Source: Planctomycetota bacterium
GTDB lineage: Bacteria > Planctomycetota > UBA8108 > SXIK01
DNA length: 64,000 bases
Reading direction: 5' to 3'
Assembly: GCA_965223845.1 (NCBI GenBank)
Contig: CBDCXR010000004.1
Coordinates: 224,001 to 288,000, forward strand
In this document: in pieces, positions 23,309 to 25,075 of the stretch
How positions within the stretch are numbered: position 1 is the stretch's first letter
Layout of the letters: each line of letters begins with the position of its first letter
Notes under the pieces: generated by a model
Seen by the model: only the letters and a program-made list of their open reading frames with translations
Database searches by the model: none
What the model was told of the DNA's origin: nothing
Program-made: the position numbers and the translations under genes

Positions 23309-24654
23309 AACGCTTCTCGCGCATTCTCATCGCGAACCGCGGCGAGATCGCTTTTCGGATCTTGCGCGCGTGTAAGGAGATGGACATCGAGACGGTCGCC
23401 GTCTACTCCGAGGCGGACCGGAACTCGGTGCATCTCGAGCACGCCGATGAGACGATCTGCATCGGTCCCGGGCCGAGCCTCAAGAGCTATCTCGACATCT
23501 CGAAGATCATCAGCGCGGCAGAGATCACCGACGTCGACGCGATCCATCCCGGGTACGGGTTCCTCGCCGAGAATCCGCACTTCGCCGAGGTCTGCCGGTC
23601 GTGTCACATCGAGTTCATCGGCCCGAGCGTCGAATCGATCCGTCTGCTCGGCGACAAGGGACGGGCTCGCTCGCTGGCGGCGGAGGCCGGAGTGCCCTGC
23701 GTGCCGGGAAGCGAGGGCCTCGTCGGCACGGAGCAGGAAGCGCTTCGCGTCGCGGAGGAGATCGGCTATCCGGTCATGATCAAGGCCGTCGCCGGTGGTG
23801 GGGGGCGCGGAATGCGCGTCGCGCACAACGAGATCAGCCTCGTGAGCGGCTGGATGGCCGCTCGCGTCGAGGCGGAAGGCGCGTTCAACAATCCCGACGT
23901 CTACATCGAGAAGCTGGTCGAGAAGCCGCGGCACGTCGAGATCCAGGTGCTCGCCGATCGTCACGGCGAGGTGGTCCATTACGGTGAGCGAGACTGCAGT
24001 CTTCAGCGGCGGCATCAGAAGCTCGTCGAGGAGGCACCATCGCCTTCGATCGGTCCCGAGACCCGCGAGGCGATGGGCGAGGCGGCGAAGCGTCTGATCC
24101 GCGCGGCTGGATACTACAACGCCGCGACGGTCGAGTTCCTCGTCGACCGCGATCAGAACTTCTACTTCATCGAGGTCAACACACGCATCCAGGTCGAGCA
24201 TCCGGTTTCGGAGTTGATCACGGGGCGCGATCTCATCCGCGAGCAGATCCGCGTCGCGAGCGGCGAAGCGCTCGGCTACGGTCAGGAAGACATCGAGTTT
24301 CGCGGCTGGGCGATCGAGTGCCGCATCAACGCGGAAGATCCCGCTAACGACTTCAAGCCGAACGCCGGAACGATCACGCGCTTCGACCTCCCGGGGGGAC
24401 GCGGGGTGCGGGTCGATACCCACGCGCGAGCCGGCTACAAGGTCCCGCCCTTCTACGACTCGATGATCGCGAAGCTGATCGTCCACGGCGACACGCGCGA
24501 CGCGGCGGTCGCCACCATGCGGCGGGCGCTCGACGAGTTCCAGATCGAAGGCGTGAAGACGACGATCCCGCTCCACAAGGAGATTCTCCGGCATTTCCAC
24601 TTCGTGAAGGGGAAGGTCGACACGGGGTTCATCGAAGAGCACTTCATGAATTAG
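23305..24654 (+). CDS. accC: Acetyl-CoA carboxylase biotin carboxylase
   Basis: GTGA overlap with acc[58 protein letters not shown]. Confidence 0.98.
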
Positions 24655-24706
24655 CCAGCAAACAAGCGCGGACGCGCTTGTTTGCTGGCTAATTCATGTT
24701 CCTTTT
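24645..24706 (+). terminator. 26-bp perfect hairpin overlapping the accC stop, followed by TTCCTTTT
   Basis: CATGAATTAGCCAGCAAACAAGCGCG-GA-CGCGCTTGTTTGCTGGCTAATTCATG. Confidence 0.8.
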
Positions 24707-25075
24707 GAGGGGGCATTCGCGAAGCCCCCTCGCTGGCGCGGCGAAGCCGCGCCAGCTTCACCCCGCCGAGCGCGCCTTCGGCGCGTTACGCGATCGGCTA
24801 GAGGTGAATCGATCGATTCCAGCCGATCCGGCTCTCGGAGTGAGTTTGCTCGGATCGAATCGGAGTCGGCTGCCCCGTGGTCTGCGGCGGAGCGTCGAGG
24901 GGGGGCATTCGCGAAGCTACCTCGCCGGCGCCGCGACGCCGCGTCAGCTTCACCCCGCCGAGCGCGCGCTCGGCCCGTTGTGCGGTCGGTTAGGGGGCGC
25001 CGTCGATCGCCGCCCTTGCGATTTTCGGAGTGAGTTAGCCCGGACCGAATTCGGGCCGGACTTCCCCGCGGGCAG
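24645..25075. repeat. Multi-hairpin REP/BIME-like element, two diverged ~190-bp units; same family as 44078-44862
   Basis: GAGGGGGCATTCGCGAAGCCCCCTCGC..TTCACCCCGCCGAGCGCG at ~24707, repeated in degenerate form at ~24897. Confidence 0.8.

Follow-up and report, generated by a model that had tools for sequence, protein, structure and literature searches.

The 64-kb chromosome segment analysed here (65% GC, from a Planctomycetota bacterium; called the window below) carries, after two of its genes, a non-coding repeat made of consecutive hairpins, the first of which (hp1) begins inside the gene and takes in its stop codon. The two genes are accC and a gene for an OmpA-family protein. This family of non-coding hairpin repeats is, as far as the literature that we found goes, previously undescribed. 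We propose, with about even confidence, that it is a mosaic 3′-UTR (3′ untranslated region) repeat of Planctomycetota, comparable to repetitive extragenic palindromic (REP) sequences and bacterial interspersed mosaic elements (BIMEs), and that its hp1 palindrome would have been homogenised against a left arm constrained by the host gene.

Perfect palindromes at two stop codons

The genes and hairpins concerned are the following.

22700–23308, + strand: accB-like gene, the 3′ part of the open reading frame (ORF) 22160–23308 (Pfam Biotin_lipoyl, E 4.2e-22)
23305–24654, + strand: accC, biotin carboxylase, 449 amino acids (aa) (Pfam CPSase_L_D2, Biotin_carb_N, Biotin_carb_C)
24645–24698, + strand: hp1, accC copy, a perfect 26-bp palindrome (fold −44.6 kcal/mol, z-score −13.7; terminator-like by scan)
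24699–24706, + strand: T-rich tract TTCCTTTT directly 3′ of the accC hp1 (from the sequence and the terminator scan)
43342–44082, + strand: OmpA-family gene, 246 aa (Pfam OmpA)
44078–44120, + strand: hp1, OmpA copy, unit 1, a perfect 20-bp palindrome (fold −35.9 kcal/mol; terminator-like)

The accB and accC genes would form a transcription unit ending at hp1, the arms of which (24645–24670 and 24673–24698) are 26 nucleotides (nt) long, 100% complementary and 2 nt apart. The left arm opens with CATGAATTAG, i.e. the last 10 nt of accC, and thus includes the end of the series of codons ...TTC ATG AAT TAG (stop at 24652–24654); the whole layout reads CATGAA / TTAG / CCAGCAAAC / AAGCGCG / GA / CGCGCTT / GTTTGCTGG / CTAA / TTCATG. 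At the OmpA-family gene the arms (44078–44097 and 44101–44120) are 20 nt long, again 100% complementary, with a 3-nt loop, and the left arm opens with ACTGA, which contains the TGA stop (44080–44082); here the layout is A / CTGA / TTGGTTCGC / AAGCGC / TTT / GCGCTT / GCGAACCAA / TCAG / T. These are the two longest perfect hairpins among 68 inverted-repeat pairs of the window, and at the other gene ends (35 ends scanned) the longest perfect stem is 12 bp, which puts the observation far beyond chance. There are exactly two occurrences of the core AAGCGC-N2-6-GCGCTT in the window, for an expectation of 0.06, and each belongs to one of these hairpins; none of 100 shuffled sequences gave two or more. 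An earlier note on this DNA had described both perfect repeats together with their gene ends, the shared inner core, and a T-tract and hairpin module common to both loci, and had taken them for a non-coding repeat family at stop codons; all of this was borne out by the analysis, including the part on the module that is given in the next section.

Each stem is followed by a T-rich tail (TTCCTTTT after accC, TTTCTTTT after the OmpA-family gene), which gives it the form of a very strong intrinsic terminator, and every hp1 of the window was rated terminator-like by a simple scan. Could these be no more than ordinary native terminators, which happen to overlap a stop codon and to precede an unrelated repeat? 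Since termination sites usually lie 25–75 nt past the stop, as stated in PMC12207403, a hairpin starting at a stop is not exotic in itself. However, the shared core (two copies for 0.06 expected), the nearly identical T-tracts and the presence of the same hp1 plan in other genomes make this explanation hardly credible. Furthermore, the sole canonical intrinsic terminator besides the hp1s among the 35 gene ends, that of rpoD (50632–50668), is made of a stem of 9 bp only (GAAGCCGGT/ACCGGCTTC) followed by T8, and is found 48 nt past the gene. Most genes of the window have no recognisable terminator; a rho gene is present at 30134–31579.

The downstream module and its tandem arrays

Either TTCCTTTTGA or TTTCTTTTGA comes after each hp1, with GAGGGGGCWTTCGCGAAGCCCCCTC next in line: a T-tract of consensus TT(C/T)CTTTTGA leads into a second hairpin, hp2, of the form GAGGGGGC-WTTCGCGAA-GCCCCCTC. 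A search with this pattern, allowing up to three mismatches, gives six matches, for 0.01 expected; every one of them is on the + strand and in one of the two loci. Past hp2, the module continues with two further hairpins (hp3 and hp4) and a conserved (T/C)TCACCCCG.CGAGCGCG motif. Its components and copies, and the gene that follows the second locus, are listed here.

24707–24731, + strand: hp2, GAGGGGGC-ATTCGCGAA-GCCCCCTC, the best-conserved hairpin of the family (pattern search, alignment)
24732–24756, + strand: hp3, an 11-bp hairpin with compensatory differences relative to hp3 of the OmpA locus (fold and alignment)
24757–24809, + strand: conserved TTCACCCCGCCGAGCGCG motif and hp4, closed by an outer helix TTCACC/GGTGAA (fold and alignment)
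24899–25062, + strand: second module unit of the accC locus, more degenerate, hp2 to hp4 and spacer (3 mismatches; 68.2 bits)
44082–44708, + strand: OmpA tandem array, 3.8 units of 165 nt, 93% match (tandem-repeat detection)
44777–44865, + strand: fifth, partial unit of the OmpA locus, with half of hp2, hp3 and hp4, without hp1 (D4, 86%; 71.8 bits)
44974–45891, + strand: rsmA/ksgA-like gene, co-directional, downstream of the OmpA array (Pfam RrnaAD, E 1.3e-39)

In the accC locus the module is present twice, at a spacing of about 192 nt, and its second unit lacks both hp1 and T-tract (D9, 85%; D16, 72%). In the OmpA array the order within a unit is hp1, T-tract, hp2, hp3, TCACCCC motif and hp4, and the first base of the array, 44082, is the final base of the stop codon. 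Units 2–4 have their own hp1 of 16 bp, with one G.U pair each; they keep the right-hand tetranucleotide TCAG, but their left-hand one is GCGA, as against the CTGA of the gene in unit 1. This is a hint that the right tetranucleotide travels with the unit and that the left one exists only at the gene. A covariance model detects seven module copies in the window, with scores of 68–99 bits, all on the + strand, all in the two loci and all seven co-oriented with the upstream gene; nothing else exceeds 22 bits. Hairpins hp1 and modules alike are in direct tandem, without inverted doublets or alternation, and both loci lie between unidirectional genes (accC and a pseudopilin gene; the OmpA-family gene and rsmA).

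Two open frames span the arrays, 24696–25238 (180 aa), which starts at an ATG made by the end of the right arm of hp1, and 44024–44899 (291 aa). In such frames the GC content at third codon positions (GC3) is about equal to that at second positions (GC2), i.e. there is no coding signature, whereas accC has 0.86 against 0.42. Pfam has no match for the frames across the arrays, and a HMMER search of the 291-aa frame against 1.84 billion representatives gave a single match, to an unrelated low-complexity repeat protein. The two frames are therefore likely annotation traps. At the RNA level, both loci score below the Rfam gathering thresholds (best scores 29.3 bits for a threshold of 168 and 24.6 bits for a threshold of 50), RNase P RNA being the single family of the window to pass, and a blastn search of the plasmids of PLSDB with both units gave no match.

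The hp1 plan in other genomes

A scan of species-representative genomes, a collection that does not include the source genome, with the hp2 pattern yielded seven loci, L001–L007, five of which are from metagenome-assembled genomes of Planctomycetota. The hp1 hairpin was not part of the search pattern; it adjoins hp2, or an hp2-like hairpin, at three of these loci, in two genomes, with four copies in all (L001a, L001b, L006 and a second site in L004). Together with the accC and OmpA copies, this makes six independent copies, and all six follow one plan: a 4-nt tag, N9, [A/C]AGCGC(G), a loop of 2–3 nt, (C)GCGCT[T/G], N8-9 and a second tag. The tags are TTAG...CTAA at accC, CTGA...TCAG at the OmpA-family gene, CTAG...CTAG in L006, L001a and L001b, and CTGG...CTAG in L004; thus the right tag is CTAG in four copies out of six, the other two having CTAA and TCAG. 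CTAG is depleted tenfold in the window (21 observed, 205 expected), and symmetric CTAG tags are therefore a feature of the family rather than a product of chance.

The plan is not tied to gene ends. In L001, the + strand ORFs that end at the tag appear non-coding (GC3 of 0.58–0.66, against 0.85 for a gene on the opposite strand), and the left tag of L004 is preceded, at 9 nt, by the stop of a kinase-like gene that has a tyrosine cluster. Nor are the arms always perfect: L006 has a bulge, L004 has two mismatches, and in L001a the N9 arms are complementary at 3 of 9 positions. Recurrence of the plan at tags that do not coincide with a gene end, or with imperfect arms, indicates that the element itself brings the tag and the spacing. 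It also brings part of N9, as L001b has the same 11 nt, GCGCTTGTTTG, as the right arm at accC. Only in L006 is the tag again a stop codon, the TAG of a pentapeptide-repeat gene, and the distance from stop to core is 9 nt there as it is in accC and the OmpA-family gene; a homologue search with the C-terminal domain of the L006 gene, made to see whether its stop is ancestral, returned no match. As for the module, its copies in L002, L005, L006 and L007 are just 3′ of a co-oriented gene. The bases on the 5′ flank of hp2 vary (TGAG, CCCG, TTCG), GTAG being found in L005 only.

In the window the repeat fills the 3′ untranslated stretches that follow accB-accC and the OmpA-family gene, and it has two building blocks. 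The first is hp1, a 'tagged palindrome' whose plan is fixed and comes with the element, and the U-rich tract behind it. The second, consisting of hp2 (GGGGGC-WTTCGCGAA-GCCCCC), hp3 and hp4, would be a REP/BIME-like companion that amplifies in direct tandem.

Some further observations concern individual loci. In L002 (reverse strand, ~1222–1262), a short hairpin of ~9 bp, with a G.U pair, has its left arm in the last codons of the upstream gene (..LSDR) and a TAG in its loop; it does not follow the hp1 plan and is followed by GTGTTTTCTTCG and by hp2-hp3-TCACCCC. The gene that precedes the second hp1 site in L004 (3–635) codes for a P-loop protein with a C-terminal run of seven tyrosines, which by eye resembles a bacterial tyrosine kinase. 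In the same locus a tRNA-like sequence, also recognised by eye, is found at ~1330–1400, ~130 nt past the other hp2.

Gene ends: host or element?

If the stems carried the stop codons with them, the native 3′ ends of the genes would have been replaced or truncated by the element. The earlier note had named this among the findings that would overturn its interpretation. For the AccC protein of the window, the nearest homologues of which are proteins of Planctomycetota, the comparison is clear. Among the 120 homologues listed, 105 have the same length of 449 aa and 116 have exactly four residues after an [ILV]EE motif, and the four closest (79–83% identity) end in FM-x like AccC itself. The position of the stop and the bases C-ATG are thus ancestral, and the right arm of hp1 pairs with ancestral host bases, because the end of AccC was not made by the element. 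By this comparison the last residue is the sole free position; it is an N, which is unique among the 120 homologues. The tail of the OmpA-family protein is more variable: ..TAMR(D) is common to 2 of 33 homologues (P0127 and P0150), from which the position of the stop differs by no more than one or two residues. A gene end supplied by the element is consequently excluded for accC, as judged from the homologues, and unlikely for the OmpA-family gene.

Taken as a general explanation, supply of the gene ends by the element looks very improbable to us, although several facts agree with it. The family tag CTAG contains TAG, and REPs, which lie less than 20 bp from the 3′ ends of ORFs, often provide a TAG stop when they have GTAG termini, according to PMC3733652. 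Moreover, the gene of L005 runs through the T-rich tract to a TAG abutting hp2, and the unique N of AccC could be counted on the same side. But the stop of AccC is conserved in 116 of 120 homologues, F-M is also found in the closest of them, the ..TAMR tail recurs in two homologues of the OmpA-family protein, and the codons are ordinary for this genome: AAT is used for 120 of 447 Asn codons (27%) and TAG for 12 of 35 stops. In L005 (reverse strand, ~1199–1260), a membrane-protein-like ORF ends with ...AVFL-TAG. Its final codons, GTGTTCTTGTAG, resemble the pyrimidine tract that precedes hp2 elsewhere, so that in this genome they may come from the repeat, together with the stop.

Host mirroring and its possible origin

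What distinguishes the hp1s of the window from the family plan is that their arms are perfect and that their right arms depart from CTAG at the positions where the gene dictates the left arm. At accC, CTAA pairs with T-TAG, in which the T comes from the last codon, AAT; at the OmpA-family gene, with the stop TGA instead of TAG, TCAG pairs with C-TGA. Pairing at accC extends six bases further into the gene, over CATGAA, four of these being bases of the conserved Phe and Met codons, and at the OmpA-family gene it extends by one base. The host-specific part of the mirror is thus one tag base and 6 bp at accC (~7 nt) and two tag bases and 1 bp at the OmpA-family gene (3 nt). Read against the plan of the other copies, host-specific mirroring is real but small, and is superimposed on a palindrome that is element-borne.

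The earlier note had gone further and suggested that the element carries a short core only, and that it lengthens its palindrome by copying flanking host DNA, which would give each gene a custom terminator. Both stems are perfect (26/26 and 20/20) while being mostly different outside the shared 7-nt core, the end of accC is ancestral, the stop-to-core distance is 9 nt in three genes, and template switching has been reported to lengthen inverted repeats (PMC8794818), all of which fits such free growth. In this form the idea is nevertheless rather unlikely. Other genomes have the tag, the N9 spacing and parts of N9 too, also without a gene end; L001a fits the plan in spite of arms that are complementary at only three N9 positions, and the CTGG of L004 has not been corrected to match its CTAG; pairing beyond the tag exceeds 1 bp at accC only. 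Hence, of the earlier claim of host copying, the pairing of right arms with the local stop context stands; the notion that everything outside the inner core was copied is not supported, given the tag-N9-core plan of four further hp1 copies.

Another possibility is insertion directed by a target. The element, moved perhaps by an HUH/RAYT-like enzyme (RAYT, REP-associated tyrosine transposase) or by another transposase, would insert 3′ of a tetranucleotide (YTAG or CTGA) that pairs with the tag of its right arm; the left tag would then be the host target, and in GC-rich DNA such sites would mostly be stop codons. The OmpA array, with its start at the last base of the stop and its units 2–4 having the right tag without the left one, agrees with this, and so does the composition of the window, in which CTAG, TTAG, CTAA and TTAA are 5- to 15-fold rarer than base composition predicts and gene stops account for 3 of the 21 CTAG sites. 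The layout, with a tetranucleotide that always stands equally far from the hairpin foot, may also resemble the recognition of cleavage sites by IS200/IS605 elements. Still, we consider directed insertion distinctly unlikely: no transposase is found among the 40 ORFs of the window, the tags vary (TTAG, CTGA, CTAG), the left tag of L004, CTGG, is not a stop, and the 10-nt match at accC exceeds what a fixed guide would give. Several of the remaining CTAG sites cluster in the repeat region downstream of accC (24797, 24989, 25033). A P-nucleotide-like opening of the hairpin was ruled out as a source of the mirror, the mirrored bases being separated by 34 nt of element.

The tag CTAG of the family contains a TAG, and in the window the left tag coincides with the ancestral stop of the host. 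In the explanation that we favour, homogenisation of an element-borne palindrome, the two arms of hp1 would be kept identical by a templated process, either template switching within the palindrome or repair templated by the hairpin. As the left arm is constrained by the gene, it would act as the effective master, and it is the right arm that would have been made to match it, with CTAA, TCAG and the six coding bases of accC as the outcome; occasionally the stem would be lengthened into the ORF. A process of this type has a precedent, as template switching creates, repairs and extends perfect stems (PMC8794818, Monttinen & Loytynoja 2022).

A number of points weigh against this explanation. The sample is tiny, with the two loci of the window and, from two other genomes, three sites that have four hp1 copies between them. 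The direction of copying would be read from an end state, and Pfam finds no transposase, RAYT or Y1/HUH gene among the 40 window ORFs. In GC-rich DNA, 1–17 loci matching the hp2 pattern are expected by chance, as compared with the seven found. With a covariance model built on the window only (R2), the outside loci score 22.9–34.3 bits, and L003, a low-GC match that resembles a control with an ordinary terminator, reaches 27.8 bits. Homology of hp3 and hp4 outside the window is weak, so that the link to other genomes rests on the adjacency of hp1, pyrimidine tract and hp2. Lastly, the outer right arms of the accC and OmpA copies show a faint likeness (p ~0.01 when anchored, a post hoc choice, and p 0.55 when unanchored), which could mean that these arms are element-borne. 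L001 and L002 alone exceed the hp2-only background, by ~6 bits, their extra likeness being in hp3 and TCACCCC; the scores of another model (R1), in which outside loci were included, are circular for the loci that it was built from.

RNA folding and possible function

The predicted fold of a unit is a row of four hairpins, and its z-score is between −9.2 and −12.0 whichever strand is folded. Between the two loci, hp3 covaries, and compensatory differences are seen in both hp3 and hp4; in alignment A1, double changes are found at 9 of 24 predicted pairs. On the + strand the same alignment has 15 G.U cells against 2 A.C cells, a count of non-independent events in which two outside rows are poorly aligned in hp3. 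The excess of G.U, the G.U pair in the hp1 of OmpA units 2–4 and the constant orientation favour a role in the sense RNA. The hp1 hairpin and its U-tract may serve as a strong intrinsic terminator and as a protector of the 3′ end of the sense transcript, right at the stop codon.

Would selection on the RNA suffice to account for the mirrored arms? Compensatory substitutions might keep a hairpin at the stop codon paired because it is useful, be it in termination, in mRNA stability or as a brake on terminating ribosomes, with no templated copying at all. The compensatory differences in hp3 and hp4, the predominance of G.U over A.C and the co-orientation of the copies with the upstream genes are what one would expect. 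However, perfect Watson-Crick stems of 26/26 and 20/20, with middles that have almost wholly diverged, are hard to reach stepwise, and copies in other genomes tolerate mismatches and bulges; selection alone thus seems quite improbable.

A terminating ribosome covers about the first dozen bases past the stop. It follows that hp1 could fold fully only after the ribosome is released. One may think of hp1 as the working end of a mobile terminator with stop codons as its targets, which it would reach by recognising the stop tetranucleotide of the host or by rewriting its right tag to match it. The stop codon would become the base of a 20–26-bp hairpin, the ribosome would have to leave before the terminator could fold, and each landing would couple the end of translation to the formation of the hairpin; copying within the palindrome would keep the arms perfect and could creep into the ORF. 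We regard this stronger scenario as unlikely. If it, or the homogenisation that we favour, were true, a family of repeats, it seems mostly from Planctomycetota, would place ready-made, very strong terminator hairpins at stop codons, with arms tracking the host stop. As coding constraint freezes one of the arms, this would be a natural case in which homogenisation of a palindrome by template switching is directly readable. The REP/BIME elements would also gain a doubly tagged type other than GTAG, in a phylum where they are barely described. For annotators the repeat has a practical use, in that it flags spurious long ORFs (24696–25238 and 44024–44899) and likely operon ends.

Comparison with known systems

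The closest parallel is with the REPs and BIMEs of E. coli and Pseudomonas (GTAG/CGTC superfamilies, Di Nocera et al. 2013, PMC3733652). According to that survey, these too are short GC-rich palindromes, with a tetranucleotide tag that is conserved and a stem that varies, which combine into mosaics and arrays, lie a few bases from the 3′ end of the upstream ORF, sometimes with a TAG stop common to both, and are thought to act as RNA in termination or mRNA stabilisation. In its placement the window repeat agrees with REP/BIME, being extragenic, near the 3′ end of the upstream ORF and between unidirectional genes. The tags, in contrast, are not those of RAYT-type REPs or of REPINs (REP doublets forming hairpins): instead of GTAG/CGTC, hp1 has TTAG/CTAA, CTGA/TCAG, CTAG/CTAG and CTGG/CTAG, and instead of a single unpaired tag, those of hp1 (CTAG, TTAG or CTGA) pair with a counterpart on the other side of the stem and stand 9 nt away from the core. 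Other differences are the exclusively direct orientation, the unit of 165–192 nt with four hairpins and the lack of a RAYT gene in the window. Both the tags and the absence of inverted or alternating copies speak against REP/REPIN membership.

With intrinsic terminators hp1 shares a GC-containing stem and a T-rich tract 3′ of a co-oriented gene; it differs in the length of the stem (20–26 bp, against 9 bp for rpoD), in beginning inside the ORF, and in belonging to a repeat family, four members of which follow one gene in tandem. Quasipalindrome mutations of the Ripley type by template switching, as treated in PMC8794818, make an imperfect inverted repeat perfect and can lengthen it in one event, by copying the flank of its other arm, whereas here the end state alone is seen. 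Signals of the IS200/IS605 and RAYT type likewise have a tetranucleotide at a fixed distance from the hairpin foot and leave no visible target-site duplication; the variable tags of hp1 and the absence of a Y1/HUH gene in the window set it apart from them. Integron attC sites are also imperfect palindromes just past ORFs, and miniature inverted-repeat transposable elements (MITEs; Correia, ERIC, RUP) are also small structured intergenic repeats, which may bear terminators. Both were rejected as candidates. The ends of hp1 fit, by eye, neither RYYYAAC nor GTTRRRY, and there is no integrase among the 40 ORFs; the flanks TTAG...CTAA and CTGA...TCAG are inverted and not a direct target-site duplication as a MITE would have.

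The family is thus not a GTAG/CGTC REP or REPIN, a MITE, an attC site or an Rfam family, and would work like REP/BIME elements and like intrinsic terminators. No description of its motif strings was found in the literature, and the only relevant work retrieved on planctomycetes and repeats was the REP survey of Di Nocera et al. (PMC3733652), the main text of which contains no planctomycete genus name.

Other features of the window

A bacterial class A RNase P RNA (51615–51961, 217.7 bits) is present, as are dnaA (39228–40832), dnaG, rpoD, rho and tatC, from which the window is probably near the replication origin. Long arrays of 15-nt tandem repeats are found at 14691–16240, with 18.7 copies at 97% match followed by ~32 more degenerate copies. 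The frames 14699–15433 and 15524–16591 in this region have a GC3 of 0.86–0.91 and no Pfam match, and the former encodes ~18 successive VLFVV pentapeptides across the repeats; either these repeats code for a protein of extreme hydrophobicity, or the ORF is only apparent and the array is non-coding.

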